DNA of 64,000 bases from Spirochaetia bacterium (GCA_965208575.1 CBDBOV010000005.1:96001-160000), one strand, 5' to 3'. Positions 25,482 to 63,953 are shown, numbered from the stretch's first letter. Notes: generated by a model not told the origin, from the sequence alone. A program made the numbers and translations.

Positions 25482-26477
25482 ATGGCCAGCACCAAAGCAC
25501 CGCCCACCGGGCGCTACCAGGCAGCGCAACCCCGGCCCGCCGAGCCCGCCGAGCCGCCGGCGTTCCCGGGCTGCAAGCCGGTGCACCTGCCGCGCACCGA
25601 GATCGACCGCTTCGAGGGACGCCTCGAGTATTGGGATTCGGCCACCGAGACCGCCTGGATCAGCGAGTCCGCCACGGCCTACCACGAGCGCCCGTCGCGC
25701 CTCCTGACGCGCTTGGCCGAGCGCATCGCCGAAGTGCGCGGCTCGCCGATCGAGTCGTACGGCTCGACCGACCTGCTGCTGCGCGACCCCGGCGGCGAAC
25801 CGCGGCGCATCATGCAGGCCGACGAGTCGGTATACCTGCATCCGGCGCAGGCCAGGCGGCCGGGGGCCGCCATGGTGGTCGGCGAGGACGACTTTCCCGA
25901 CGTGGTGCTGGAGGTTGACCACACCACCGACGTCCACCGCGGCAAGCTGGCGCTGTACGAATCGTGGGGCTTCCCGGAAGTGTGGGTGGAAGTACCGGAC
26001 ACGCCGTCGCCGAGCCGCCCGCACCGGCGCCGCCCGGGACTGACCATACATGTGCTGGAGCACGGCCGGTTCCGGGTTGCGGCCGAGAGCCGGGCATTTC
26101 CCGGCTGGCGGGCGGACGAGATTCACGTGGCGTTGAACGAACCGGAGCCGTCCGCGCGCACCAGCGCGGTGGTGGAGCGGGTCGGAGCGGCGCTCGGCGC
26201 GCGCGAAGGCACCGGCCCCGACGATGACCCGCTGCTGCGCTCGCAACGGCGCCAGGGGTACGAGCGCGGCCATGCTGCAGGTCGCGCGGAAGGCCGTGCA
26301 CGGATGGTCCGGCAGATCCTGCGGTCGCGCGGCATTGCAGTGTCGGCGGGGTTCTCCGCCGCTACCGAAGCGTTCGCCGCGGCGTCCGAGGAGGCGCTGC
26401 TGGCGGCGGCGCTTGGCTGCGCCGATGAGGGGGAGTTCCTGGCCGCGCTCCGGCGCCCGCGCGACTCGGACGGCTGA
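25482..26477 (+). CDS. Uma2-like PD-(D/E)XK family protein, copy 1
   Basis: YHE, QAD, PDVVLEVD, KLALYESWGFPEVW; promoter TTGCAT-17-TACGCT ends 6 nt before the ATG. Confidence 0.8.
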   Translation: MASTKAPPTGRYQAAQPRPAEPAEPPAFPGCKPVHLPRTEIDRFEGRLEYWDSATETAWISESATAYHERPSRLLTRLAERIAEVRGSPIESYGSTDLLLRDPGGEPRRIMQADESVYLHPAQARRPGAAMVVGEDDFPDVVLEVDHTTDVHRGKLALYESWGFPEVWVEVPDTPSPSRPHRRRPGLTIHVLEHGRFRVAAESRAFPGWRADEIHVALNEPEPSARTSAVVERVGAALGAREGTGPDDDPLLRSQRRQGYERGHAAGRAEGRARMVRQILRSRGIAVSAGFSAATEAFAAASEEALLAAALGCADEGEFLAALRRPRDSDG

Positions 26478-48906: not shown

Positions 48907-49017
48907 GGTCGATCGACCCGCGGCGGGCCGGCCGGGCGTCCGCCAGCGCGAACTGCCGACCGCCCGCGCAGCCTTGTAGTTGTAGGCGTACCGGCGCGTG
49001 TGGTCTCATGTCCGCGT

Positions 49018-50754
49018 ATGCTGGGACGTTGGAGCCGGGCGATGTGGGCAGTGACGGCGGCGGCTCTGCTGGGCGCGGGACAGCTCGGCGCGGCTCCCCA
49101 CGTGGCAGTTATCCCGGTCAGCACCGAGACGAGTTGCGCGGGAGCGTTCGTTGCGCGCCCGCTGCCGCACTCGGTGGAGCCGATGCCGAACCTGCCGATG
49201 CCGTTCGACAGCAACGGCTCGGGGGTCGCGATCGCCGACCTCGATGGCGACGGCTGGCTGGACGTGCTGCTCGGCGGGCTGCACGGCCCGGCGACGGTGC
49301 TCTGGAACCGCGGCGACCCGGGCGGTCCGGCGTTCGATGCCGTGGCGCTCGAACTGGTCGGGGCGCGCGCGGTGGCCATCGTGGACGTGGACGGCGACGG
49401 ACACCAGGACATCGTCGCCACCCGGCCCGACGAACGTCCGCGGTGGCTGCGGGGAAGCGGCGGACGCACCTTCCGGATCGTGGACGACGAACGGTTCGTC
49501 GCCCGCTATCCCATCTACACGATGGCGTGGGACGATCTCGATGGCGACACCGACCTCGACCTGGTCGGCGCCACCTACGACGCCGAGTTGGAGCGATACG
49601 AGGCGATGGAGGCATACCGGAACTTCGTGACGACCAACGTTTCCACCGCCCGCACCCGGCAGCGGGGGGTGTGGTACTACGAGAACCTCGGGCCGCGCGA
49701 CCGGCGCAGCGCCTTCGAGCCGGGTGAGTTCCAGTTCCTGGCATGGCCCCTCGCCGCCGGCGCGATGGCACTGGCCATCGTGCTGACCGACGTCGACGGC
49801 GACGCGCTCAGCGACATCGTCGTGGGCAACGACTACGACGTCCCGGACAACGTATTCCTCCGCACCCCCGATCGGGTGCGCCCGCACCGGTCGTGGTGGC
49901 GCCCCGGCAGTCCGTTCCCGGTGACCACCCGCAACACCATGGCATTCGCCACCGGCGACGTGGACAACGACGGCCGCATCGAACTGTTCGCGGCGGACAT
50001 GAGCCCGTACCGCGCGGGTGCGGACATCGACGAGGCGTGGGGGCCGCTGCTGCAACCGGGCGGCGCGGCGACCCCGGTGGGCGACGGCGTGCAGGCCGCG
50101 GCCAACGTGCTGCAGACCCGGCAGGAGGACGGCTCCTACCTGGACACCGCCGGCCGCGCCGGGGTGGCCGCCACCGGCTGGAGCTGGTCGGCGCAGTTCG
50201 GGGACTTGGACAACGACGGCGACCTGGACCTGTACGCCGTCAACGGCATGGTCGGCGACCCGTTCCGCAAGCTGGCGAACGCCGAGTTGGTCGAGGAGAA
50301 CCAGGCGCTGCGCAACCTGGGCGGAGGGCGCTTCGTGGCCGCGCCGGAGTGGGGGCTGGGCGCCACCGAGAGCGGGCGCGGCATGGCGCTCGGCGACCTC
50401 GACCGCGACGGCGACCTGGACATCGTGGTCAACAACTACCGGGCGCCGTCGCTGCTGTTCGAGAACCGCCTGTGCGGCGGGGCGAGCGTGCAGGTGGACC
50501 TGGTCTGGTCCGGCACGGACAACCGGTTCGCAATCGGCGCCTCGTTGCGGCTGGACACCGATGCCGGCCGCTACCGGCGCGACGTGGAGGTGACCAGCGG
50601 CTACCTGTCGAGCAACCCGCCCCGCGTCCACTTCGGCTTGCCCGCCGGCGAGCGCCCGAGGCGCCTCACCATCCGCTGGCCGGACGGGTCCGAGGACGTG
50701 GTGGGCACCGCGCACGGCCTGACGGCCGACACGCTGCTCACCGTCACCAGGTAG
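49018..50754 (+). CDS. Secreted FG-GAP repeat/CRTAC1 (ASPIC-UnbV) family protein
   Basis: Signal peptide, repeated DxDxDGxxD motifs, C-terminal AIGA..SGYLS..HFGL..IRWPDG. Confidence 0.88.
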   Translation: MLGRWSRAMWAVTAAALLGAGQLGAAPHVAVIPVSTETSCAGAFVARPLPHSVEPMPNLPMPFDSNGSGVAIADLDGDGWLDVLLGGLHGPATVLWNRGDPGGPAFDAVALELVGARAVAIVDVDGDGHQDIVATRPDERPRWLRGSGGRTFRIVDDERFVARYPIYTMAWDDLDGDTDLDLVGATYDAELERYEAMEAYRNFVTTNVSTARTRQRGVWYYENLGPRDRRSAFEPGEFQFLAWPLAAGAMALAIVLTDVDGDALSDIVVGNDYDVPDNVFLRTPDRVRPHRSWWRPGSPFPVTTRNTMAFATGDVDNDGRIELFAADMSPYRAGADIDEAWGPLLQPGGAATPVGDGVQAAANVLQTRQEDGSYLDTAGRAGVAATGWSWSAQFGDLDNDGDLDLYAVNGMVGDPFRKLANAELVEENQALRNLGGGRFVAAPEWGLGATESGRGMALGDLDRDGDLDIVVNNYRAPSLLFENRLCGGASVQVDLVWSGTDNRFAIGASLRLDTDAGRYRRDVEVTSGYLSSNPPRVHFGLPAGERPRRLTIRWPDGSEDVVGTAHGLTADTLLTVTR

Positions 50755-50846: not shown

Positions 50847-51284
50847 ATGGCCAGCACCAAGGCACCACCCACCGGGCGCTACGAAGCGGCGCAACCCCGG
50901 CCCGCCGAGCCCGCCCAGCCGCCAGCGTTCCCGGGCTGCAAGCCGGTGCACCTGCCGCGCACCGAGATCGACCGCTTCGAGGGACGGCTCGAGTATTGGG
51001 ATTCGGCCACCGAGACCGCCTGGATCAGCGAGTCCGCCACGGCCTACCACGAGCGCCCGTCGCGCCTCCTGACGCGCTTGGCCGAGCGCATCGCCGAAGT
51101 GCGCGGCTCGCCGATCGAGTCGTACGGCTCGACGGACCTGCTGCTGCGCGACCCCGGCGGCGAACCGCGGCGCATCATGCAGGCCGACGAGTCGGTGTAC
51201 CTGCATCCGGCGCACGCCAAGCTGCCGGGGGCCGCCATGGTGGTCGGCGAGGACGACTTTCCCGACGTGGTGCTGGAGGTGGAT
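50847..51284 (+). pseudogene. Uma2-like gene, copy 4, truncated by island integration
   Basis: Nearly identical to copy 1 up to ..PDVVLEVD, then an abrupt switch to AT-rich island DNA. Confidence 0.88.
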
Positions 51285-51294
51285 TCCAACACCA
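51268..51294 (+). mobile_element. Putative att junction core site
   Basis: TGGTGCTGGA-ggtggat-TCCAACACCA: inverted 10-bp arms around a 7-bp spacer at the exact Uma2 breakpoint. Confidence 0.75.
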
Positions 51295-51305
51295 TAGCGT
51301 ACCAG

Positions 51306-51395
51306 TAGACCCCTCATAGTTCCTTTAAGTTACTGTATATCAGCCCTTTAGACCCTACATAGTTCCTTGACGTTTCATCGATTCTTGCTTAGAAT
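51306..51395 (+). promoter_or_regulatory. Two 20-bp direct repeats (possible arm-type sites) and the integrase promoter
   Basis: TAGACCCCTCATAGTTCCTT (51306) and TAGACCCTACATAGTTCCTT (51349); TTGACG-17-TAGAAT (51367-51395). Confidence 0.65.
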
Positions 51396-51469
51396 ACCAC
51401 TAATGGTGATACTTAAGGTTACTCTCCATCAGACTGCTTGAACCGCTCTTCGTCCTGGAGGAACTGATC

Positions 51470-52657
51470 GTGAAACGTCCCAAGAGACTGTCCGCTGCTT
51501 TCGTTCGCACCGTCAACCGTCCCGGCCGCTACGGCGAGGGACGTGGCGGGCTCGGTCTGTCGCTCATGGTGAAGGAGCGGAAAGGTGGTGGCCTGGCGAA
51601 GTCATGGAGCCAGCGGCTACGCATCAACGGCAAGCCGTCCAACGTGGGCCTGGGCCGCTATCCCATCGTGACGTTGGCGGAGGCACGTGAGAGGGCGTTG
51701 GAGAATGCGCGAGCGGTCGACCAAGGGCGCGACCCACGCGACCGATCGCGGATCCCTACGTTCGAGCAGGCCGCCGAGAAGGTGATCCGACTTTACGAGC
51801 CGACATGGCGCACCAGCGGCGCCGACTCGTCGGCCGCGGTATGGCGTTCGTCTCTGGAGCGATACGTGTTCCCAAAGCTCGGCAGGAAGCCGGTGAGCGA
51901 GATCACCACTGCCGACGTGCTCGCGGTGATCGTGCCGATCTGGCACACCAAGGCGGCGACGGCGAGCCGGGTGAAGGGCCGCATCTCGTCGATCATGAGA
52001 TGGGCCATCGCGCAGAACTACATCGAGAACAACCCTGCCAGCGACGTGGTGGCGGCGGCGCTGCCGCGAGCCAGAACCCCGAGACAGCATCACCTGGCCC
52101 TACCTCATGAGGAGGTCGGAGCAGCTCTGCAGAAGGTGCGCCACTCGGACGCCAGCCCGGCGGCGAAGCTGCTGTTCGCGTTTGCTACTTTCACGGCGAG
52201 TCGAACCGCCGAGGCTCGGCTCTCTCGTTGGTCCGAGGTCGATCTTGAGAAGCGCGTCTGGACCGTCCCGGCGGAACGCATGAAGGCCAAGCGGGAACAC
52301 CGGGTGCCGCTGGCCACGCAGACGTTGCAGGTACTGGCGAACGCTCAGGACTTGGCTGACGGCTCGGGACTGATCTTCCCGTCGCCCACCCGACCGGGAC
52401 CGCTGGGCACGAATACCCTGAGCAGATTATGCAACCACCTGCGCCTGGGCTGCACACCGCACGGGATGAGAAGCAGCTTCAGGACGTGGTGCGGCGAGAC
52501 GGAGCAACCTCGCGAACTGGCCGAGCAGGCACTTGCACATGTCAATCCGAACCGCGTCGAGGCAGCCTACATGCGCTCTGATCTCTTCGAGCGACGAAGG
52601 GAGTTGATGGAAGCCTGGAGCGATTACCTCGTCAACCGATTGGACAGAAGGGGTTGA
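51470..52657 (+). CDS. Tyrosine integrase, P4/IntA-like with N-terminal arm-binding domain
   Basis: GLGRYP.VTLAEAR arm domain; catalytic R (ASRTAE), K (MKAKREH), HGMR, LAH, Y (AAYMRS). Confidence 0.95.
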   Translation: MKRPKRLSAAFVRTVNRPGRYGEGRGGLGLSLMVKERKGGGLAKSWSQRLRINGKPSNVGLGRYPIVTLAEARERALENARAVDQGRDPRDRSRIPTFEQAAEKVIRLYEPTWRTSGADSSAAVWRSSLERYVFPKLGRKPVSEITTADVLAVIVPIWHTKAATASRVKGRISSIMRWAIAQNYIENNPASDVVAAALPRARTPRQHHLALPHEEVGAALQKVRHSDASPAAKLLFAFATFTASRTAEARLSRWSEVDLEKRVWTVPAERMKAKREHRVPLATQTLQVLANAQDLADGSGLIFPSPTRPGPLGTNTLSRLCNHLRLGCTPHGMRSSFRTWCGETEQPRELAEQALAHVNPNRVEAAYMRSDLFERRRELMEAWSDYLVNRLDRRG

Positions 52658-52771
52658 CCAATCGCCGTCTACGAGGTAGGACAGGGTTCGGCGGACGCAA
52701 GGCAATGATTTGGCCCAAAACATCGTGCCGACCGGTCGACAGAATCGGTCGTATCTTCGTCTATTGTAATC

Positions 52772-52935
52772 TTGAGGAAGCCAGATGTACTGAAGCTGAT
52801 CAGTTTATCACCGACTACGTTGCGGCGCGCCGGGTACGTGCCGGGGACTTTCCGGCACCTGTCCGGCTCGGGGGCCGGGGGTCACGCGCCGTCGGCTGCG
52901 ACGCGCGGACGTAGAGCGATGGTTGGAGGAACGGC
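52772..52935 (+). pseudogene. alpA: AlpA-family excisionase/regulator, frameshifted
   Basis: Across frames: LRKPDVLKLISLSPTTL/RRVRAGDFPAPVRLGGRGSRAVG/ADVERWLE. Confidence 0.7.
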
Positions 52936-52940
52936 CGAAA

Positions 52941-53073
52941 GCTTAGTGCTCTGATTCGTAAGTTCGGTGACGTATTCTCGACCGCGTGGCCTCATGGCTA
53001 GCATCACGGTGCCGACGCGATGCGGCGATCATGCAATATCCAATCGCAACCATACTTACGAAATGCACTAAGC
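52941..53073. repeat. 133-bp imperfect palindrome (MITE- or attC-like), copy 1
   Basis: Ends GCTTAGTGC..TTCGTAAGT / ACTTACGAA..GCACTAAGC; second copy at 54436-56011. Confidence 0.8.
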
Positions 53074-53394
53074 TAAGCGTTCAGACGAATCCATGATTCG
53101 GTCGGTAGTCGGTCCGCATCGATGGCATCTGTGTTCGAAGTACTGCGTAACGGGCAGAGTACCGGCAGGGCACCTCTTCTCTGCCTCTCAGGCGTATCGG
53201 GTCAGAGCAATCTCGTACCGCCTAGTGGGTTGTTCTTCGCCGGGAGTTCTCACTTTGACAAGCGATCCCTTAGGAGTCAAACATGCCGTATCGGTTGACA
53301 TGTCTTCGCAAAGTTTCGCCAGGCCGCGACGTCCCGCGGACCGTTCTGGCTCCATCTGTACCGTGCTGCTCTCTCTGCCGCCGAAGAGACAATC

Positions 53395-54390
53395 TTGAGG
53401 AGTCCGGTAGTGTTGGTATCGCCTTGGTTGCAACTATTCCAGGCACATCTGAGCGTTCTGCAGCCACGAACGCTGACTTGGCGTTGCGATCTCGGCACAG
53501 GCGCAGAAATGAGGCGCGCATACTCTGGCTTGTATGGCCGTTACTTTGCCCGTGCGCTCCTCGCGAGCGTACTCGGGTTCACGGACTTCATCCCGCTAGA
53601 GAGGAATCGCACCAATATAAACGGAGGCGTGACGGTGAACCGTGTCGCGAATGGTGATATCCCGGACTGGATCGCTTGGGATCCGCAGGGAAAAGGCTAT
53701 GTACTTGGTGAAGCCAAAGGCAGGTTGACGGGTAATCTGCAGGACTATCTTCTTGGGACGCCAGTGTGTATCACTAATGGGAAACAACAATTCGGGCGAG
53801 TCGAAGTGAGAGACTCTGCGAATAGAGTAATTTCGACCCGCGATTGGGTTGCGGTGAACCGTTGGTCGACCGACCGGCGTGGCGAGCCGCCAGTCTCGCT
53901 GTTGTGGGATCCACCGGGTGATGGCGAGCCCCTCACGGGTGAGGAGGCAAGTCGCCATGCCACCGCGATCCGCCGGCACCGCCTTGAGGCAATTGCCCAG
54001 CGGCTGGGACATTCAGATTTTTTCGTGCGGATCGGCGCAACGGGTTCCACAGACGGTCCGCCGTTGTTGGACACTGGTGACGAACAAGAGAATCCCTTCG
54101 GACAGTTTGATCGACAGTCCGCCGAACCGTACGAGGACTACTACCAGGCGGCGATCGTGACGGCGCTGGGGATACGCCCGATACGTGACCGAAATGACTT
54201 CGAGGACGCTTTGACCATCCAGGTACGCACGTCCGACAATGACGAGCCCGCTATGATTTTTGGCTTGGCGAAAGGGGCATCCACGATGTCGGAACGTGGA
54301 CAAGCACCATGGTTATCGGCGAATGGGATCGCATCCACTGATGGCTCGGCTCTATTCGACCTGAAGAGCGTGGAGATCGAGCGTGCATAG
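53395..54390 (+). CDS. Hypothetical PD-(D/E)XK nuclease-like protein (start uncertain)
   Basis: PDW.AW...YVLGEAKG motif; lower GC than the host. Confidence 0.6.
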   Translation: MRSPVVLVSPWLQLFQAHLSVLQPRTLTWRCDLGTGAEMRRAYSGLYGRYFARALLASVLGFTDFIPLERNRTNINGGVTVNRVANGDIPDWIAWDPQGKGYVLGEAKGRLTGNLQDYLLGTPVCITNGKQQFGRVEVRDSANRVISTRDWVAVNRWSTDRRGEPPVSLLWDPPGDGEPLTGEEASRHATAIRRHRLEAIAQRLGHSDFFVRIGATGSTDGPPLLDTGDEQENPFGQFDRQSAEPYEDYYQAAIVTALGIRPIRDRNDFEDALTIQVRTSDNDEPAMIFGLAKGASTMSERGQAPWLSANGIASTDGSALFDLKSVEIERA

Positions 54391-54514
54391 GTATGCCCAC
54401 TTTGTGCAATGCTCATCCTGATCGCGTTCCACTTACTAAGTGCTCTGTGAGCTGGTCCCGGAAAAACGGACGGTATGGTAGAGTGTATCCAAGGCCACGA
54501 GGAGGGCCAGCAAG

Positions 54515-54799
54515 ATGGCGACGAAGAGGCGTCGGTTCACAGCGGAGTTCAAGGCGAAGGTAGTGATGGAGGCGCTGCGGGGAGACCGGACGATCCAGGC
54601 GATCGCGGCCAAGCACGAAATACATCCGAACCAGATCAGCAGTTGGAAGCGGCAGGCTCAGACCGGTCTGCGGGACCTGTTCGCCGACGGCCGGAGCCGG
54701 CGGCAGAAGGAGCACGATGAGACCATTCACGACCTGCATGCCAAGATCGGGGAGTTGACCGTGGAGCGCGATTTTTTAGCACGCGGGCTCGGGCGCTGA
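54515..54799 (+). CDS. IS3 OrfA
   Basis: RRFTAEFKAKV..IHPNQISSWK; T6 slippery site near 54772. Confidence 0.9.
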   Translation: MATKRRRFTAEFKAKVVMEALRGDRTIQAIAAKHEIHPNQISSWKRQAQTGLRDLFADGRSRRQKEHDETIHDLHAKIGELTVERDFLARGLGR

Positions 54800-55656
54800 G
54801 CCGGGCCGAGCGACGAGAGATGATCGACCGCGAGCACGAGGGTCTGAGCATCAGCCGGCAGTGCCACCTGATCGGGCTGAACCGGTCGACGCTGTACTAC
54901 CGAGCGGTGGGCGAGAGCGCTGACACGCTCGCGTTGATGCGCCGCATCGACGAACTTTATCTGGAATGTCCGTTCTACGGCAGCCGGCAGATGATGCGCC
55001 ATCTGGCACGCGAGGGAAAGCGGGTCGGTCGGCACCGGGTGCGGCGGCTGATGCGGCTGTTGGGGCTGGAGGCGATCTACCGCAAGCCACGCACCAGCGT
55101 CGCGCACCCGGACCATCGGGTGTATCCGTATCTGCTGCGAGGGCTTACGATTGAGCGCCCGAACCAGGTGTGGTGCGCGGACCTGACCTACATCCCGGTG
55201 CAGGGAGGATTTCTGTACCTGGTGGCGATCATGGACTGGGCGAGCCGGCGGGTGTTGGCCTGGCGGCTGTCCAACACGATGGACACCTCCTTCTGCCTGG
55301 AGGCGTTGGCGGACGCTCTGGAAGACTTCGGCATTCCCGAGATCTTCAACACCGATCAGGGCAGCCAGTTCACCAGCATCGCGTTCACCGGCCAGTTGGA
55401 GGCGACCGGGATACGGTGCTCGATGGACGGGCGCGGTCGTTGTCTGGATAACGTATTCATCGAACGGTTGTGGCGCTCGCTGAAGTACGAGTCGGTATAC
55501 CTGCACGATTTGGAGGATGGCTTCGAGGCGCAGCGGGTGATCGACGGGTGGATGGCATTCTACAACGAGACCCGACCACACTCGGCGCTCGGCGGGCGTA
55601 CGCCCGCGGAAGCGTACCGCGACGGGGTGGCGGAACAACAGCAGGAGGTGGCGTAG
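54796..55656 (+). CDS. IS3 OrfB (DDE transposase)
   Basis: WCADLTY, NTDQGSQF, DNVFIERLWRSLKYE. Confidence 0.92.
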   Translation: MSRAERREMIDREHEGLSISRQCHLIGLNRSTLYYRAVGESADTLALMRRIDELYLECPFYGSRQMMRHLAREGKRVGRHRVRRLMRLLGLEAIYRKPRTSVAHPDHRVYPYLLRGLTIERPNQVWCADLTYIPVQGGFLYLVAIMDWASRRVLAWRLSNTMDTSFCLEALADALEDFGIPEIFNTDQGSQFTSIAFTGQLEATGIRCSMDGRGRCLDNVFIERLWRSLKYESVYLHDLEDGFEAQRVIDGWMAFYNETRPHSALGGRTPAEAYRDGVAEQQQEVA

Positions 55657-55886
55657 CGAACAGGAACGGCAGGCGCTTGGCATGGGGTGCAAGGGCATCC
55701 GAGGACCAACGGGAGCGCGAGCAGTGGGGACGAAGTATCCACATATCCACAGGCTCGCTCACCCCCTCCCCGGACCCCACCCCCATTACCGCCGCCTGAT
55801 CATCTCGACCAGGAGGGTGGGTTGACAACGAACGAGATGCACTCTACAATATCCCATCCACTGTCCAACCTATCGGGTCCACGTCA

Positions 55887-56011
55887 CTGATTCGTAAGTT
55901 CGGTTACGTATTCTCGACCGCGTGGCCTCACGGCTGGCATCACGGTGTCGACGCGATGCGGCGATCATGCAATATCCAATCGCAACCATACTTACGAAAT
56001 CGTGTACTTAG
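55887..56011. repeat. Palindrome copy 2 (left tip 54436-54447 displaced by IS3)
   Basis: Only a few substitutions versus 52951-53064; removing the IS3 restores CTAAGTGCTCTGATTCGTAAG. Confidence 0.8.
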
Positions 56012-56839
56012 GCCGATGCCTTGTGTGCACAGCGGACCGGATGTGACCCTATCCTGTGTCTTCATCAAACGTCAGAGGGTCGGCACGACGACCATTGTGC
56101 CAGCCTGCCAGCGCGCCCGTGATGCTCGGACACTCGTGACTGGCCATCCATAGAGTGCGTCCGAACTGCGCGGGCTCCTCCATCCGGACGATACTCACCA
56201 TGGCCGGTTCGGCGGTGCACCTCGCAATGCCCGCAGCGGTCGAGTGCTCGCGCGGCGTGCCAAGCCCTGGAGAACAGAGATCGTCCCGGCGCCGTCGCAT
56301 AGGTGCTGAATGCCACCTCACCGGGCCGCGACTTCGTAGTTGCTCTCATAGCGGGTCGGATTCGCGGGAGTCTCGTCCTACCCTGTACTCGGATCCGGCG
56401 GGCGTCTTGAGATGATCCGTTTGCCTTAGGCTGTTCGACTACGCCATTATCTTATCTATTTGTAATATCTGTAAGGGTTTACCTGTTGTACCAATATCCC
56501 GTTATTGCTTTCGCAACCCCTTGATCGTTTCGGATCATCCTTGATTCGCTTCGAGCTGGCGCCGTGACGCGTGCGTAGCCGGTAATCGCAACCGTGGCCG
56601 GCTCCACCATCGCGGCGCCCACAATCCCTGAACATCTCGCACGCGACTTGGGACACCGTCAAGACGGTCGACCTGAGCGGCCTGAGCGGTCCGACGCTGA
56701 CGTTGTACCGCCGTCGGCACCGACTACAGCGGCGGCGTGAGCGAGCCGTAACATGAGCCTTCGCGGCAACGGCCGGAGGCTGCGCCGGTGGCGGCACTCG
56801 ACGACGAGCTGGCGACCTCCGTGCGTCTCGACTACTTTC

Positions 56840-56930
56840 GTGATAAGGGGGGGCGACTCTCCGCGGCCGTCAGGCTCGGGGGTCGGGGTCACGCGCAGTT
56901 GGCTGACACCACGCGGACGTAGAACGGTCG
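56840..56930 (+). pseudogene. Second decayed AlpA-like relic
   Basis: GGCTCGGGGGTCGGGGTCACGCGCAGTTGGCTG..CGCGGACGTAGA aligns with ~52865-52915. Confidence 0.55.
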
Positions 56931-57176
56931 TGAGAGACGCTGTATCAAGCGTAAGCGATCGCTGTGGCCGGAAGCGGAGGAACCCGATCCGGGGGGCCTG
57001 TCAGACATCAGCGAATGGGCACGGCTGCCATTCGAGATTTTCGTCCAGATCAGCCGCACTCGCTTGAACCCAGGTCTACCGGTCTAAGCGCGCGTGTGGC
57101 GTCCGGGTAGCCCAGGGCGGTTGCCCGCCCCAGGCCCCCACAGTCCCGTGCGAGCGCGATTGACGCACACGGTTCC

Positions 57177-58493
57177 TCAGGTCGTAGAGTTCGCTGCATA
57201 GATGGACTGGACGACACGAACGGCCGGCAGCGGATATCGGGCCAGCAACCGCGCAAAGCAGGCCCACGTGAGGCGTCGTCCACCGCGCCGGTTCAGCCAC
57301 TTCAACCAGAGGCGCTTGGCGGCGTCGTGGAAGTACCCCAACGAGCGCCCATTGCCGGTAATGCCGTAATACCCATAGTGGCCCAGCAGCTTGCGCCGGA
57401 GGGCCGCTTGCTGCGCCCGCAGAGGCTCGTGCCGATGGCGCTTACACCACACGGCGAGTGCTCGTAACGCACGGGTCAGCCGGTCGGAGGCGGTTTTCCG
57501 CTTCACGATCCACTTCCCGTTGCGCGAGCGCCCCCAATAGTGCGTGAATCCCAAGAATGGAAAACTCGCCCCGTGGTGGGCTGTCGCGTTCCCTCCCGGC
57601 GGTCGAAACTGAAGCATCCGTGTCTTTTCCTCGTGCACGGTCAACCCGTACTTCGCGAAGCGCTTTGGTAACACGCGCAGCACGTTCTCGGCATCGCGCC
57701 GGTCGCTGAACGTCAGTACCGCATCGTCCGCAAAACGCACCAGGAACGCCCGCCCCCGCAGGCGCGGTCGGACCACCTCATAGAACCATCGGTCGAGTAC
57801 CTCGTGCAGATAAACATTGCTGAGCAACGGCGATAGTACGCCACCTTGCGGTGTCCCCTGCTCCGGGTAGGTCACTGAGCCATCTTCCATGACCCCTGCC
57901 TTTAGCCATTTTCCGATCAATCGTGTGATCACTCCATCTCGCATCCGCTGTGCCAGAATCGTGCGCATGGTAGCGTGTGACAGCGTGTCGAAATACTTTC
58001 GTATGTCCAGGTCTATCACCCAACCGCCCCCTTGACCCATCATCTGGTCCCAGAGTGCTTGCAGCGCCGTGTGCGGCGATCGCTTCGGGCGAAAGCCGTG
58101 TGCACAGCTTAGAAAGTCTCGCTCGTACAGGGGCTCAAGCAGCATCTGTACCGCCCGCTGAAGTACCTTGTCCTCGAAGGTCGGTATCCCGATCGGGCGG
58201 GTTTCTCCGCCCTTCCCTTTCGGAATGTGCGCCCGCCTTACCGGCGGCGCGCGGTACGTTCCCGCCTTCGCCCGCTCCAGCAGTGATTTCAAATTCTGCT
58301 CCAGGTTCTCCCCGTACTGCTCGGCAGTCTGTTCGTCAACTCCAACTGCACCATCCTTCCGGGTACGCCGGTAGGCTTCGTACAGCCACTCCAGATCCAT
58401 GTGATACGCCAGCGACGTGAATGCCACGCCGGCGTGGATTCTCGCGTTCTCTGCTATCTGCTGCTGTTTCGTTAACACGTTCCCGGATTCCAT
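57177..58493 (-). CDS. ltrA: Group II intron reverse transcriptase/maturase
   Basis: RPIGIPTFEDK, GFRP, GTPQGG..SP.LSN, FADD, FLGF, X domain GHYGYYG. Confidence 0.95.
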   Translation of the reverse strand: MESGNVLTKQQQIAENARIHAGVAFTSLAYHMDLEWLYEAYRRTRKDGAVGVDEQTAEQYGENLEQNLKSLLERAKAGTYRAPPVRRAHIPKGKGGETRPIGIPTFEDKVLQRAVQMLLEPLYERDFLSCAHGFRPKRSPHTALQALWDQMMGQGGGWVIDLDIRKYFDTLSHATMRTILAQRMRDGVITRLIGKWLKAGVMEDGSVTYPEQGTPQGGVLSPLLSNVYLHEVLDRWFYEVVRPRLRGRAFLVRFADDAVLTFSDRRDAENVLRVLPKRFAKYGLTVHEEKTRMLQFRPPGGNATAHHGASFPFLGFTHYWGRSRNGKWIVKRKTASDRLTRALRALAVWCKRHRHEPLRAQQAALRRKLLGHYGYYGITGNGRSLGYFHDAAKRLWLKWLNRRGGRRLTWACFARLLARYPLPAVRVVQSIYAANSTT

Positions 58494-58971
58494 CGCATCC
58501 TCCATGTTTCCCCGCACCAGTTCTACGACTTGACGCCCTCCTTCCCTCCGCCGGGTCCGGTGCGGCGACCGTTCCCCCGCTTCCTCGGTACTATGGGGGC
58601 GCTAAGACTGCTCGTTGCCCTTCCCGCCGCGCTTCGTTGCCTTCGCTTGGCGGTACCACGACCGCACCCGCTGCTTCGCTCCTGCACGTTCACGGGCGCT
58701 CTCCCGTGCAGGCCCGGACGTTGGTGTGCCGGCGTCCCTCCGGCTCTCCCGTCATGGAGACATCGAGCTCTCCCAGGTTCCTGGGCCACCCGCTCCGCAT
58801 CTGCCCTGCTCTCCGACCCCGACCGGGCCGCCGTGCCTCGCCATTTCGGCACGTACGGTGCTGCCCCCGCATTTGTCGACTACGAAGGCCCCAGCGAGCA
58901 TTCTCCTTTCGAGGCTCAATCACACGGCTTCTGCGGTCGCTGTCTACGCTTCGCCCTCAGGGTCGCCCCTG

Positions 58972-59541
58972 GGGTGCCAATGCCAAAAGCGGCAACAGGG
59001 GTTGACACGATCAGGCGGCTTTGATCTGGCAGTCGTCAGGAGGACTGAAGTAACGCTTGAGATCGCCGTTGAGCAGAGCCAGACGGGTGCGTAGCACGCA
59101 GCGGTTGTCGTGCGGTCGCCATCTCATCCCGTTGCCCTTGAAGCGCCGACCGACAACCAATTTGCACTGCCCTTCGACCAAGCCACTGCCGATCGGCCAC
59201 CCGAGATCGCGGTAACGGGCATAGTCCATACGGTCCTGGCCACCTCACCGCCAACCGTGATCTGGTTGGCGGATGTCGGCTCAGCGAGTCCGGCAACCAC
59301 TTCCTGCACCATCTCGTCGCCGATCCAGTTCACCATCTCAAGGATCTTGGCTTCCGCCTCCTGGAGATCCATCCGGCCGCCGTTGATGCGCCCTTGCAAC
59401 TCCTTGACAAGGCCCTCGGCGGCCGCTATAAGTCCTTCCGTATTCATGGTCTACCTCCCCATGGTGTGGTGTCGTGGGGTAGGTAGACCTTTTTTCTGCC
59501 CCAGAGTCAATGATTTGCTACCGCTTTCGGCGTTCGCACCC
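58972..59541 (-). mobile_element. Internally deleted ISKra4/ISLre2-like element (570 bp)
   Basis: 26-bp TIRs GGGTGCCAATGCCAAAAGCGGCAACA / GGGTGCGAACGCCGAAAGCGGTAGCA; 9-bp TSD TCGCCCCTG; transposase N-terminus joined out of frame to C-terminal PIGSGLVE..K..GMRW. Confidence 0.85.
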
Positions 59542-60348
59542 TCGCCCCTGCCGACGCAAGACTCGCTTCCGGCTGCTTGCTATGCTTTACCGGATGGGAT
59601 TGGCTACCCACGGGGTGGCTAAGAAAGGTTTCTGATGTCTATTTCATCTTCCTCCTTCCCCAGGCTTGGCCTGGCGCGACGACAATTAGGATGAGAATCA
59701 GTGTCGCAACGAGACACAGGGTGGGCGTAGGTTGGTTGCGTTGTGCAAGGGGCTCCAAATGTACAGTCCCTGTCGCTGAGCGCGCCGGTCAAGAATGAGC
59801 CAGAATGCCGGTCAGGCGTGCATTTTATTGCATAAATGCTCAGGACATGGGGGTATCGGACCCCAGCCCGACTCGTGGAGGGGCCTTGGCGGGCCGCTGA
59901 GAGCGATTTCGCTTCGTCGGCGGGCGCCGATATGCAGATATGCAGTGCACGGGTCACTGATGGCCGCCCGGACCAAGTTGTCGGCGTTCTCCAACTCGCC
60001 GCCGGTGGCGCCGGCGCGGTCATCCCTGGCTTCCAGGAGTTGTCGGACCAGTTCGGCAGTGACCGTGAGGAATCCCGGTCGGCATCGTAGCGGTCCCAGG
60101 GCCGCCGGGGGCGGCCAGGTCAGGACTTGAGGAGCGCAGCGTACGTGCGGCGGGTTCGCTCAGTCCCGCCGGAACCGGCGGGCCGGTTCGACGCCCTCCA
60201 GTGTGGCAAGATCAAGGGTGCCAATCGCGTGCTGTGCGGGCGCGGACTCCAGGAGACTGTCGAGCAGGCCGTCGAAACCACGCTTGGTACCCATCCTGAA
60301 GGTGGAGCAGGGTCGTGCTGCATCTGCCAGAGTTGCGGTCGAGTCGGA

Positions 60349-60630
60349 TCAAGACCATCGGTCACTGTCGACCTCGGCAGCCGCTGCGCGCCGGCGTTTG
60401 TTTTCGATGGCGGTGCGCCGGCGTTTGTTTTCGACGTTGAGTTCAAAGATGGTGGCCCGGTGCACCAAGCGGTCGATGGCGGCGACGGTCATGGAGGGCT
60501 TGGGGAAGATCTTGTCCCACTGGCCGAACGGCTGGTTGGCGGTGATCAGCGGGGAGCGCTGTTCATAACGTGTACTGATCACAGCTCGAACAGGACGCTG
60601 GTCTCGGCGTGATCCTTGGTGACGTAGGCC
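60349..60630 (-). pseudogene. istB: IS21 IstB C-terminal relic
   Basis: ETSVLFEL/ISTRYEQRS.LITANQPF..WD..F...AAIDRLVH; frameshifted. Confidence 0.8.
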
Positions 60631-61326
60631 GATGCGTTGCGTCACAGGGGACCAGATGTGACCCTGTCCTGCGTCTTATCAAACGTCAGAGAGTCGATAC
60701 GACAGCCATCCCAATGGGCCAGCCCTGCCCGCGCGCCGTGATGCTCGAACATCCGTGACGGGCTATCCTCGAGCGCGTCCGAGGCGGACCCGAGGGCGGC
60801 CCGCACATTCCAGCCGCAGCCGCCGTGCGTGCGTATCTGACGTGGCGGCGAGCCGAATCAGGACGGAGCTGTGCGGGCGCCTCCATCCGCCGATACCCAC
60901 AGCCGGTGCGGCGGTGCACCTCCCGAAGTCCGACAGCGGTCGAGCTCCTGTTCGGCGTACCTGGCAGCAAGTCGACGCTCGCACGAGGCCGTTCTGCCCA
61001 AATGCTCCGCAGAACGGAAATGCAACGGGGACGGTGACACTGAGCGACGTGCGCTCTGTTTGACGTAAGCGCCGGACCTACCACACGATAGGCCTCATGA
61101 GAAAGTTTGACCAAACCGCAAGAGTAAGGGGCGGACGCCTACATGAAGGAAGAGCGGCGGCCCACACTCAGCGTATCGCGAAGGCAGAGGACGACGCCGC
61201 GGCCTCAAACGTTCAACGGGCCGCATCGACACTCAGTGCACCGGCGGTCGCCGTCGCTCGCCATTTCGCGGATGCCTCATCGCGTCTGTAAAGCCTCCGT
61301 GCCGTAGGCCCTACGGTGTCCCCAAG

Positions 61327-61962
61327 ATGAGCAACGATCCAAAAGCGCCGGAGATCACGATTGACGAGCTCACAAAAAGCGTCGACGAAATTGCTCAAAC
61401 CCAAAAGGCGAGCAAGAAAACGGAACGTCGGAGGTTCGTAGTCCTCGCGATAGCGCATCTTGTAGTTGCCGCATGCACGGCGTTCAGTCTCTATCTTCAC
61501 TACGACGAAAAGCGAAGGTTAGAATCCCAAATACAGAGGACGATGCGTACCGACTTGGAGCTCCAGATCCTACCATATAGCATAGTAAAGAGCCGCATGA
61601 ACGGTAACTCATTCGAATGGCGCGATGCCATCGTTGATCTTCCCGATCACCTCAACACGACAGAAAATGAGGCTGTCATCGTGGTTGTAAATCCTAGTGA
61701 CGTAAGCACAGGAGATGGATGCATCCGCGGTTCTCTGTGGGTTCCCCCAAAGCCGAAAATAACACTAGGCGATATGTTCAAAACTGAGATGGCGTTCTCA
61801 CCAAAGAGGGGCGAGGCTTATTTCACTGGGTATGTTTATGACAAAGACTTTAAGTCGGAGAATCTCCGGTTTCTTAAAGATTGCAAGAAAGAACAACCAC
61901 TCGTAAGGGTCAAGTTTATCCCATTCACACCACCAACAACCTCGAAGCCGAAAGAAGGGTAG
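61327..61962 (+). CDS. Hypothetical single-TM protein (low GC cargo)
   Basis: 211-aa ORF with a hydrophobic helix; operonic with the next gene. Confidence 0.65.
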   Translation: MSNDPKAPEITIDELTKSVDEIAQTQKASKKTERRRFVVLAIAHLVVAACTAFSLYLHYDEKRRLESQIQRTMRTDLELQILPYSIVKSRMNGNSFEWRDAIVDLPDHLNTTENEAVIVVVNPSDVSTGDGCIRGSLWVPPKPKITLGDMFKTEMAFSPKRGEAYFTGYVYDKDFKSENLRFLKDCKKEQPLVRVKFIPFTPPTTSKPKEG

Positions 61963-61968
61963 TAGAAT

Positions 61969-63147
61969 ATGTCGATAAAGAGCGTATTATTGTACTTCAC
62001 AGTCGCCACCTGGATTACACACGCAGTCATCGCGGACGATCATCAGTTCCTTTACACACCGCACAACAGTGCGGCCGTCCAAGATGGCTTGATTGTATAC
62101 TACACACAACAGCGATCCGAGCAAATCGATAGGATAACTAGACATCCGATAGACGCTGACTTTTACCTAAAGCGCCTTACGGTTAGGAGTTTCCATCACT
62201 TGACCTCGGTCGACATTGTATCCGTGATTTATGATGTTGCTAACTTCTATGGGTCTGATCGGTTAAACGAACTTGGTATCACCCGGTTGAATATCCTCTG
62301 GGGGTCTCAACAGACATCGGACGGAGTCTTCAGCTATGATGGCGGCGTGGTCGTTGAACGCGAACTTCTTGATGCGATGTTGTCGAACACAGAGCAAGTT
62401 GCGCAGATTAGAGAGTTCGCGAATGGAATCAGACGTATCGTTCCGCCTGATAGCTTCGATCCGATAGATGATCAGTTCTCAGGGGCGAACGAGAAGCTTG
62501 GGACAATACATACACTGAATGAGGAAGATGAGGATTGGTTCAGTTATCGAATAGCTCAAGGAGGATATTATGCTGTAGAGACGTTACCGGTCGAAAGCAG
62601 GCAACGGGTAGACACAGTAGTGGAGGTTCGTACCGACGATCAGACAATTGTAGACGACGATGGGAGTGACGAGTTTCTATACTCTCGCGCGTTGATAGAG
62701 GTAGTTGACAACGCGGCGGTGGTAGTGAAGGTGACCAGCTACGGTACAGCTGGGGGGTACTACGTCCTCAGTATAAGCTCCGTACCGTTGGATGAGATTC
62801 TCATAGATCCGTACGAACCGAACGACACGATTGAAACAGCAAAAGATATAGTCTCGGGATCTGAGATCACGGCGATGCTGAATTCGAATGAAGATGTCGA
62901 TTGGTTTGAAGTCCAAGGCCTAAAGAGAGGACGGACGTACGAACTTCTCATTTTTTCCGACGACTATGATACGACGGCAACTCTCTTCGTGGGAGATCGC
63001 GCTGGGCCGTCGCTTGAATTCTCTGAATTTTCGCCATCAGGGAGGTTTCAACTCGAGTCGAAGGGGCGGATTTTTTTGATGGTGGTCGGGGGATGGAGCG
63101 GCGAGTACACGATCGTTATTCAGGAGGATGACCCGCCAAGACTGTGA
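61969..63147 (+). CDS. Secreted protein with two PPC-like beta domains (low GC cargo)
   Basis: Signal peptide; DEDWFSY..DDDG..YYVL and DPYEPNDT..DVDWFEV repeats. Confidence 0.7.
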   Translation: MSIKSVLLYFTVATWITHAVIADDHQFLYTPHNSAAVQDGLIVYYTQQRSEQIDRITRHPIDADFYLKRLTVRSFHHLTSVDIVSVIYDVANFYGSDRLNELGITRLNILWGSQQTSDGVFSYDGGVVVERELLDAMLSNTEQVAQIREFANGIRRIVPPDSFDPIDDQFSGANEKLGTIHTLNEEDEDWFSYRIAQGGYYAVETLPVESRQRVDTVVEVRTDDQTIVDDDGSDEFLYSRALIEVVDNAAVVVKVTSYGTAGGYYVLSISSVPLDEILIDPYEPNDTIETAKDIVSGSEITAMLNSNEDVDWFEVQGLKRGRTYELLIFSDDYDTTATLFVGDRAGPSLEFSEFSPSGRFQLESKGRIFLMVVGGWSGEYTIVIQEDDPPRL

Positions 63148-63459
63148 TACCGGATGCAAAACTGGAAGCCCATCATTCTATTCTATATGGACCGAAATAG
63201 TCCGTCTCGACGACGTCGAGACTGAGAGTAGCCAGACGTTCGAGGCTGTGGTGCCGTTAGAGTTAGAGGTTGCGGGGAGGTGCGCGCCCAGCATAGGTTG
63301 GGATTAGCTGTTACGGGCAGCTTTTGCACGTTCTACACGGTGGCTGAATCACCGCATCGTTGAGCTTAGTGGAGCGGCCGCGACGCCATCCGGCGTATCC
63401 TAACTAAACGGAGATTGCACCGCACAGCCAAGCGACTGACGACAACCTAGTGGCAGTTC

Positions 63460-63583
63460 CCGCGACGAACGCGAACACGCCATGCAGGTCAGCCAGATAC
63501 TTTTTCGCTGGCGCCCACCACCGCGGGGAGCGAGATCGAGGTAAGCAGTGACACGCGGCCCGGGCGTGGTGATGGAGGAATAC
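63460..63583 (+). pseudogene. Decayed 5' half of a Uma2 gene (copy-2 subtype)
   Basis: ATCGAGGTAAGCAGTGACACGCGGCCCGGGCGTGGTGATGGAGG aligns with copy 2 ATCGAGGTGGGCAGCGACGTGCTGCCGGACGTGGTGCTGGAGG. Confidence 0.65.
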
Positions 63584-63953
63584 TCCACCACCATGACATG
63601 CCACTAGGTCCCTCATATTTCCGGTGGGTTACCTAATAGCAGCTCGTCATACTCGATGTCTGTTACTTGACGTTTCATCAACTCTTGTCCTAGTGTGATG
63701 CCGAAGATTACTTTCCCATTCGAACGCTTCAGCCGCCACTTCGTTCTCGAGAACACCTGTCGTGAAGCGTCCCAACGATTCTCCGCTGCTTTGTTCGCCC
63801 CGGCAGGCGAGGCTCGTCGCTGTTGGTGAAGGAGCGGCAACGTGTTGGACCGGCGAAGTCCTGGCGCCGACGCTGCGCATCAACGGCAAGCCGTCCAACG
63901 TGGGCCGGGGCGTTATCTCACCGGGACGCTGGCGGCGCAGACGGCCGACATAA
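63567..63953 (+). mobile_element. Decayed second att core, promoter and integrase 5' relic
   Basis: TGGTGATGGA-ggaatac-TCCACCACCA; colinear similarity to 51268-51660 (CTTGACGTTTCATC, GTGAAGCGTCCCAA, CGCATCAACGGCAAGCCGTCCAACGTGGGCC). Confidence 0.8.

Follow-up and report, generated by a model that had tools for sequence, protein, structure and literature searches.

The window analyzed here, the whole 64,000-nt stretch G000:C5:96001-160000, belongs to the Spirochaetia bacterium assembly GCA_965208575.1 (G000), a metagenome-type genome with a completeness of 95% from a bacterial family found in sponge metagenomes. In its right-hand part, a gene of a multicopy Uma2-like family (copy 4 in the window) breaks off within conserved codons, and the break coincides with a short inverted-repeat core (site 1) that is followed by an island left end, an intact tyrosine integrase gene (int1), the remains of an AlpA-like excisionase gene and cargo; close to the end of the window, a decayed arrangement with a second core is found (site 2; Table 1). 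Very probably, the region represents the integrase-proximal part of a P4/CP4-57-type site-specific integrative island whose bacterial attachment site (attB) is provided by the VVLEVD(H/N)TT codons of the multicopy Uma2-like family.

Table 1. Features of the island region and its host flank, in nucleotide positions of the window (ORF, open reading frame; IS, insertion sequence; RT, reverse transcriptase; nt, nucleotides; aa, amino acids).
Feature	Position	Strand	Evidence
Host flank, FG-GAP/ASPIC-UnbV repeat protein gene	49000..50754	+	Pfam FG-GAP_3, UnbV_ASPIC
N-terminal 146 codons of a Uma2-like paralogue (H-type; copy 4), cut after EVD	50847..51284	+	DNA profile positions 6-418
Putative attL core (site 1): TGGTGCTGGA (10 nt) - GGTGGAT (7 nt) - TCCAACACCA (10 nt)	51268..51294	.	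9/10 complementary arms
Island left end	51295..51469	+	Direct repeats and promoter-like site
int1, intact P4-type tyrosine integrase, 395 aa	51470..52657	+	Pfam
AlpA-like excisionase pseudogene, two frameshifts	52713..52945	+	Aligned to the intact G010 gene: +2 and -1 indels
Cargo ORF, 331 aa	53395..54390	+	No Pfam or PADLOC match
IS3-family IS: orfA 54515-54799, orfB 54820-55656	54515..55656	+	rve, HTH_21, rve_3
Group II intron: RT 57177-58517, ribozyme D1-D4 58807-59022	57177..59022	-	RVT_1 111 bits; Rfam RF02005 91.9 bits
Two low-GC ORFs, 211 and 392 aa	61327..63147	+	No family match (Pfam, PADLOC)
Remnant of an N-type Uma2-like gene, decayed and broken off at the same codon	63483..63566	+	nhmmer, z-score
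Second core (site 2): TGGTGATGGA - GGAATAC - TCCACCACCA	63567..63593	.	9/10 complementary arms
Decayed island left end and first ~60 integrase codons (from ~63774)	63594..63935	+	Frame breaks

An earlier note on this DNA had claimed that copy 4 stops exactly after PDVVLEVD and that a core, direct repeats, a promoter and an intact tyrosine integrase follow; all of these elements were recovered in place, the promoter as a promoter-like site. The intact paralogues, proteins of 304-355 aa, read through the motif as PDVVLEVD(H/N)TTDV(H/R)RGKL, whereas the copy 4 ORF (50847-51308; 153 aa) ends in FPDVVLEVD-SNTIAYQ*, running for seven codons into the island up to the stop codon at 51306-51308. Its first 146 residues share 84-93% identity with nine other copies on contig C5 and 46-82% identity with about twenty further copies. 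When a full-length copy was split after LEVD and its two halves were searched separately in G000, the N-half gave 29 and the C-half 26 matches; 24 of these abut as intact genes, so that the family counts 24 intact copies in this genome, while copy 4 is represented by its N-half only. At the nucleotide level (blastn), the likeness of site 1 to the intact paralogues ends at 51283 or 51293. Compared with the same half of the intact copy 25 kb away (25482-26474 of the window), the N-half of copy 4 is 96.6% identical at the amino acid level, and the FG-GAP/ASPIC-UnbV gene preceding it also precedes Uma2-like copies in paralogous units, for example at C5:204743-207546, where an FG-GAP gene is followed by an intact Uma2-like copy (94% identity). 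Because of this identity to a nearby paralogue and the same FG-GAP gene upstream as at C5:204743-207546, the copy 4 N-half is, judged by its sequence, chromosomal and not island-borne.

Lambda- and P4-type integrases use inverted core arms around an overlap of about 7 bp. All arms identified here fit TGGTGNTGGA, inverted and arranged around 7 nt, which is the classical layout of a tyrosine-recombinase core, and the core columns are conserved in an alignment of five loci. Inverted repeats of the 10-7-10 type are not rare on their own, with 12 in the window vs. 3.6 in shuffled sequences (counted by script, as the inverted-repeat tool misses both cores, which have no exact 6-nt seed); among these 12, only sites 1 and 2 share the arm sequence and precede an integrase start by ~190 nt. 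In the island left end at site 1, two 26-nt direct repeats (51306-51331 and 51349-51374; 85% alike) are candidate arm-type sites for the integrase, and a promoter-like TTGACG-17-TAGAAT lies at 51367-51395. The TTGACGTTTCA stretch and the ribosome-site region are conserved with the corresponding parts of site 2, of int3 (an integrase gene at C4:120778) and of an integrase locus in the congeneric genome G010, which is available as one 7.0-Mb contig. The int1 protein, which shares 84% identity with the G010 integrase and 73% with int3, carries the Pfam domains Arm-DNA-bind_3 (48 bits), Phage_int_M (94.2 bits) and Phage_integrase (57.6 bits; cut-off 27.1). Residues R245, K272, H331, R334, H357 and Y367 are invariant in seven homologues and would fill the R-K-H-R-H/W-Y roles of the family. 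The recombinase domains that Pfam detects in the window are of the tyrosine type only, with no large serine recombinase among them. While int1 itself is intact, the AlpA-like excisionase gene beside it is broken, its reading being spread across three frames, and neither fragment gives a Pfam match.

In G010, the integrase likewise stands behind the N-half of a Uma2-like gene cut at the same codon (residues 12-147, at 2554481-2554894). The interrupted gene is of a different subtype (N-type; 56% identical), and the distance from the break to int is 186 nt, compared with 185 nt in the window. The left junction reads GTGCTGGAGGTGGAC followed by TCCAAA. On the same strand, 68.5 kb off, lies an orphan C-half (residues 142-326, at 2485299-2485925), the only one that begins at this position, and the right junction leads from AT-rich DNA through GATGGTGGTGGAC into AACACCACCGAC and this C-half. 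GGTGGAC is the only exact block common to the two G010 junctions, the arms being imperfect, and joining the outer parts of attL and attR yields the commonest N-type paralogue site. A pair of left and right attachment sites on the two halves of one gene is thus present in G010, whereas the island of the window has the left one only. An intact AlpA gene stands beside int in G010 (Pfam Phage_AlpA, 43 bits).

Two more junctions were found in G000 itself: at C4:672505, 30 nt of the island left end come after an N-type N-half, and at C3:530739 an IS copy is followed by ~35 nt of the island right end and then by an N-type orphan C-half starting from the first residue after EVD. Both subtypes are therefore interrupted, with an H-type paralogue affected at window site 1 and N-type ones at the other three places (G010, C4:672505 and C3:530739). 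Genome-wide, four of six partial Uma2-like copies break at profile positions 394-420 of 947. Among 24 family genomes, which were also the sample for the 26-mer and 16-mer counts given below, three left-junction and two right-junction patterns occurred, in G000 and G010 only, and the reversed-pattern controls gave none. These data support the earlier proposal that the conserved VVLEVD(H/N)TT codons act as a multicopy attB, given the same codon and a right end in G010 and the junctions at C4:672505 and C3:530739. A junction with a Uma2 3' half had been named as something that ought to exist, and it does so at the right end of the G010 island, with one more right junction at C3:530739. The expectation that the other island end would read arm, overlap and Uma2 3' half was realized in G010 (right arm, GGTGGAC, C-half); for the window island it failed in G000. 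The orphan C-half at C3:530739 was considered as the right end of the window island and rejected, being N-type, located behind an IS copy and mismatched to the H-type copy 4.

The site itself is strongly conserved across the family. The left arm TGGTGCTGGA is present in 20 of 23 intact copies and the overlap GGTGGAY in 17 of 23; the exact 26-mer target site occurs 14 times in G000 and 8 times in G010 and is present in 19 of the 24 family genomes, spanning two genera, with no occurrence of the control. The Uma2-like proteins were compared with the Uma2 motif, PD...EV(x) followed by D..K..Y and G.PE.W: P139, D140, E144, V145, D146, D150, K155, Y159, G163, P165, E166 and W168 are invariant in eight paralogues, and the FPDVVLEVDHTTDV.RGKLALYESWGFPEVWVEVPD stretch aligns with the PDLLVEILS... 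stretch of PDB 9y1l_A (E 0.022), which is labelled a 'putative restriction endonuclease domain' protein. On account of the motif alignment with 9y1l_A, the break falls inside the conserved PD...EV(x) motif, which is presumably catalytic as in PD-(D/E)XK enzymes.

We envisage the following mechanism. A heterobivalent integrase with arm-binding, core-binding and catalytic domains would act on an attachment site consisting of the 27-bp stretch that encodes VVLEVD(H/N)TT, part of the conserved nuclease motif PD..EV(D), with the arm-binding domain possibly contacting the direct repeats of the left end. The core would be made up of two inverted 10-bp arms around the 7-bp overlap GGTGGAY, and strand exchange, were the enzyme active, would take place within this overlap. 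Selection on the protein motif would hold the site nearly identical in about two dozen paralogues, each of them therefore a possible and equivalent landing site. Insertion would split the Uma2-like gene after EVD, and the AlpA-like excisionase adjoining int would drive excision.

Some further features of the target family may be recorded here. The Uma2-like proteins have a C-terminal extension of ~150 aa, in which a run of G-R/H-A-E-G repeats is variable and the terminal domain conserved; this extension, seen in the copy at 25482-26474 of the window and in its paralogues, is absent from ordinary Uma2 proteins of ~190 aa. PADLOC gave a weak PDC-S17 match only (E 7e-4) on these proteins. At G010:C1:2325662-2326099, a further H-type copy ends a few codons sooner, with unrelated DNA taking over behind FPD; this is a break of a different kind and not a junction of the element described here.

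Site 2 had been presented in the earlier note as a decayed Uma2 gene of another subtype, broken at the same codon, with a decayed promoter and integrase start behind the core. The Uma2 remnant could be confirmed: 63483-63593 matches the DNA profile of the 24 intact paralogues at positions 304-420, in the same register as site 1 (nhmmer; E 1.7e-6 in 12 kb, 0.0017 genome-wide), and the 60 nt left of the core give z = 7.9 vs. an N-type paralogue. Window positions 63565-63935 are 68.7% identical to 51266-51680 over 419 nt, and the integrase start was found as tblastn pieces covering residues 11-50 and 39-62 in two frames; no promoter-like site was scored any longer at site 2. As to the two independent insertions that had been postulated, the one at site 1 stands, while the independence of site 2 is uncertain in view of its GATGG arm and of a 16-mer that recurs in another genome, G002, without a Uma2 flank. 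This 16-mer, GGTGATGGAGGAATAC, is found exactly at two places in the 24 genomes, site 2 and G002:C109:10533-10548. At the latter position (loci L043 and L213) there is a decayed integrase with ~86% amino acid identity to int1, and the context of the G002 core is syntenic with G000 contig C2 at ~575-585 kb. No Uma2 flank was detectable at the G002 core, and a comparison of its upstream 1.4 kb with 59-63.6 kb of the window revealed nothing in common except the core.

Site 2 may represent an old independent insertion or else an element-borne joint, and the two are about evenly balanced. The joint would be an attP-type or tandem junction of a second lineage, with GGAATAC as its overlap, that had captured a diverged Uma2 fragment on the right-arm side; the order in the window would then be attL - island 1 - joint - decayed island 2, for which we put the chances close to even, if slightly below. 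The restriction of the 16-mer to site 2 and G002, in both cases ~190 nt before a decayed integrase, is in line with such a joint, all the more as the surroundings of the two cores are far less alike (only a 23-nt match of 95.7% in left flanks and cores) and as low-GC foreign DNA lies directly left of the core in both places; the clear N-type Uma2 likeness of the 60 nt left of site 2 is at odds with it, considering that the flanks of G002 and int3 give z values of ~0 to 0.6 and that site 2 vs. G002 reaches z = 1.6. The arm sequences likewise set site 2 apart. The arm reads GCTGGA at all three junctions with a true N-half and GATGGA at site 2, G002 and int3; the right-end junctions of G010 and C3 read GATGGT, GATGG, the signature of arms derived from the element, being common to these two as well as to site 2, G002 and int3. 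These true right ends, however, consist of AT-rich DNA and lose all likeness to Uma2 outside the core. Moreover, the arm and overlap of site 2 are absent from all intact paralogues, against which it has to be held that, in a region ~31% divergent from site 1, a 7-nt overlap with three changed positions is in line with expectation.

Several points weigh against an island family targeting Uma2 genes. The target family is a divergent relative of Uma2, and its membership is borderline: the full protein scores 26.4 bits against the Pfam cut-off of 27 (PF05685), several copies reach 27-28 bits and others 21-26.9 bits in a six-frame Pfam search, and truncated copy 4 alone gives no Uma2 match, so that 'Uma2-like' is the safe name. 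G000 has an estimated contamination of 5.75%. The island of the window is without a right end, no H-type C-half being found in G000 by C-half protein search, DNA profile or right-junction pattern, and since attR and C-half are missing from this genome, its integration is deduced from one end only. No excision product or empty site was found in the assembled contigs of four metagenome runs. The Uma2-targeting clade is carried by only two genomes of one genus: of 239 relatives in GTDB species genomes, the 79 other loci retained include no integrase above 60% identity, and 38 metagenome relatives include none above 58%. Finally, the core can sit outside Uma2 genes, because int3 has a core-like site beside a PNPOx/DUF2470 gene with no Uma2 half and the decayed G002 copy lacks a detectable Uma2 flank. 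The earlier idea that this integrase family targets Uma2 genes is thus narrowed to the clade of int1 and the G010 integrase; int3 is without a Uma2 half, and clades of 60% identity or less sit in other genes.

As for other explanations of site 1, the island could have entered by homologous (RecA-type) recombination, not site-specifically, if the element itself had brought along a stretch of Uma2-like DNA. At site 2, such DNA does adjoin a core over 60-110 nt, and the target family is highly repeated within a region that is a mosaic of segmental duplications. Such an entry is nevertheless most unlikely, as the junctions in four paralogues lie at identical nucleotides, those of G010 share a 7-nt exact block and imperfect arms only, Uma2 likeness fades within ~10 nt of the site 1 junction, and a dedicated integrase and AlpA flank the site. 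We also regard as very unlikely a regulated gene-integrity switch of the heterocyst or sporulation type, in which conditional excision would restore the Uma2-like nuclease: with 8-14 intact paralogues containing the same site there is no obvious value in restoring one copy, and the window copy has lost its C-half and has a defective excisionase, even though the insertion lies in the presumed catalytic motif and G010, which has kept int, AlpA and both junctions, would permit precise restoration. The recurrence in G010 of the same codon, core and 185-186-nt spacing together with a matching right end, and the remnant junctions at the same position elsewhere, leave hardly any room for a truncation of copy 4 unrelated to the integrase, in which the gene was disrupted by an IS or a deletion and an island from elsewhere came to abut by chance, rich as the region is in IS, intron and duplications.

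We consider the site-specific island of the window to be a fixed remnant, because its right end and C-half are gone, its excisionase is frameshifted, and IS elements and a group II intron have invaded it. The two low-GC ORFs near site 2 have a GC content of ~0.49-0.52 vs. 0.67 for the genome. The stretch G010:C1:2485926-2554480 (loci L054-L057) constitutes a complete sister island of 68.5 kb. Among the products of 20 scanned ORFs, out of 69 candidates of at least 120 aa, Cas3 and the Cas7-type CT1975 protein make up a type I-E-like CRISPR-Cas set. Also encoded are a methyltransferase, proteins of GmrSD_C-like and D5_N primase-like type, another tyrosine recombinase and several transposases or IS elements; 7 of the 20 scanned ORFs gave no match. 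The G010 sister island thus looks like one of the defence type. Cargo common to the G010 and G000 islands, by tblastx, is confined to int and IS-type matches. The G010 island is flanked by repeats without a clear orthologue in G000, which is why independence of the G010 and G000 insertion events is likely and not proven.

The surroundings of the window complicate any reconstruction of its history, as G000:C5:110000-215000, which includes the window, is a mosaic of segmental duplications with 80-99% identity. An attempt to derive the ancestral gene order from synteny was abandoned for this reason, the 105 kb around the window being a patchwork of duplications. Units of an FG-GAP/ASPIC gene plus a Uma2-like gene are repeated within this range, and pieces of the FG-GAP 3' end occur at C5:128397 and C5:168571. 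In the assembled contigs of the four metagenome runs, one run covers 30 of 30 bins of the window, a contig spans window positions 60502-63905 with zero differences, and the IS3 element and the group II intron show the high contig depth expected of repeats. Among the 15 listed of 59 joints, none links 51.28 with 63.58 kb. In another run, a loose end of 14 letters at 51284 continues as an intact H-type copy; since it could come from any paralogue, it speaks neither for nor against excision. The intact sites found were paralogous only, such as that at C5:204743-207546.

We further surveyed the integrase relatives beyond G000 and G010. A quick tree was calculated that left out L060 and L078 (duplicates of the loci L037 and L046) and L099, L111 and L165 (internal stops); in it, int1 and the G010 integrase group with a support of 98 in the Shimodaira-Hasegawa-like approximate likelihood ratio test (SH-aLRT), int3 joins them at 100, every target type is monophyletic, and the Uma2 clade neighbors an HNH clade. 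Metagenome-assembled genomes, carrying the labels of at least seven phyla, commonly contain relatives of 50-60% identity; 'sponge metagenome' is the label of several of the runs, and the flanks of the homologue loci are mostly unique. The earlier note had stated that homologues sitting next to tRNAs would speak against its proposal; by ARAGORN, no tRNA was found on the att side in the 60 of 80 homologue loci scanned, the sole tRNA in these 60 lying ~1.7 kb past the int 3' end in L116. Four integrases ~60% identical to int1 (L038, L047 and L051 in G008, L046 in G010) lie at an HNH gene broken ~74 codons in. The HNH target (PF01844, 22 bits vs. a cut-off of 21.4) belongs to a family of 551-aa proteins with an intact copy at L196:1279-2931; of 64 matches in G008, ~40 reach at least 81% identity across most of the query, and three separate HNH paralogues are interrupted there. 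A further group (L119, L126, L130, L131, L139, L160) has one common upstream flank, printed as ...RTIPP in five, which in L119, the only one scanned by Pfam, is a DUF222 gene. Both 'targets', HNH and DUF222, are read from one junction each and should be regarded as candidates.

Near-identical integrases of the RTIPP clade carry the labels Pseudomonadota and Gemmatimonadota, which suggests transfer or a binning error. Another set of loci (L061-L076, L112, L123, L125, L129 and others; 55-59% identity) has a conserved inverted-repeat motif, TGGCGGAGAGGGAGACCGCCA, upstream and unrelated DNA to the left of it; seven loci with this motif come from OZ242265.1 (L085, L086, L089, L091, L093, L097, and L099 only if it belongs to the same genome). 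The first letters of the motif resemble a tRNA 3' end in reverse complement; as ARAGORN calls no tRNA there, this assignment was dropped.

It is conceivable, though we hold it with less than even confidence, that one P4-type integrase radiation in this bacterial family has specialized on multicopy, probably selfish or defensive nuclease genes, with three clades directed at the EVD codons of Uma2-like genes, at HNH genes ~74 codons in, and at DUF222 genes after RTIPP.

In the classical case, islands of the P4/CP4-57 type insert at the 3' end of a tRNA or tmRNA gene, which is restored. The Uma2-like island resembles them in its set of Arm-DNA-bind_3, Phage_int_M and Phage_integrase domains, in AlpA beside int (G010), in the inverted-arm core with a ~7-bp overlap, and in a variable, partly defence-type cargo with a D5_N primase-like gene in G010; it departs from them in having a multicopy site inside a protein gene that stays unrestored. 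The dusA islands represent a tyrosine integrase family (PMC4482086) that inserts at one site in a conserved protein-coding gene. There, the target is a single-copy housekeeping gene, unlike the expanded and probably dispensable Uma2-like family, of which several paralogues have been struck. For phiRv1, PMC9317374 places attB in the repeated REP13E12 element, with several sites per genome and a serine recombinase. The attB of the Uma2-targeting island is likewise situated in repeated chromosomal sequence, whereas the window features a tyrosine recombinase with an inverted-arm core, and organisms and elements are unrelated. DUF222, whose genes appear to be cut by the sister clade, is presumably the family encoded by REP13E12. 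A tyrosine integrase clade that repeatedly targets prophage late genes and shifts among related protein-coding targets is described in PMC10111431. Its targets reside in helper prophages and the effect is regulatory, in contrast to the chromosomal multicopy nuclease-like genes hit by the Uma2 clade. We found no paper treating Uma2 or DUF820 genes as an integration target in titles and abstracts, island-catalogue supplements lying outside this search. What distinguishes the Uma2-targeting island is an internal, non-restored site in a multicopy protein-coding family, so far documented in two genomes.

Site-specific islands are usually mapped to tRNA or single-copy genes; here, the site consists of conserved enzyme-motif codons present as 8-14 exact copies per genome, and the target is held constant by selection on a protein and not on an RNA. 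An element with a multicopy site can land at many places, stack, and seed rearrangements between copies, and the duplication mosaic of the surrounding 100 kb is in keeping with such seeding. Should the sister clades prove to prefer HNH and DUF222 genes, the choice of targets across this integrase radiation would follow expanded nuclease families, which bears on the interplay of islands and resident nuclease genes in host-associated bacteria, and the radiation would supply natural integrases with short, well-defined cores of differing specificity. Were the proposed specialization on nuclease genes true, the conserved motif codons of expanded nuclease families would serve as many-copy 'safe harbour' landing pads, and islands with defence cargo, such as the type I-E CRISPR-Cas set in G010, would spread at the expense of the resident nuclease genes that they knock out.

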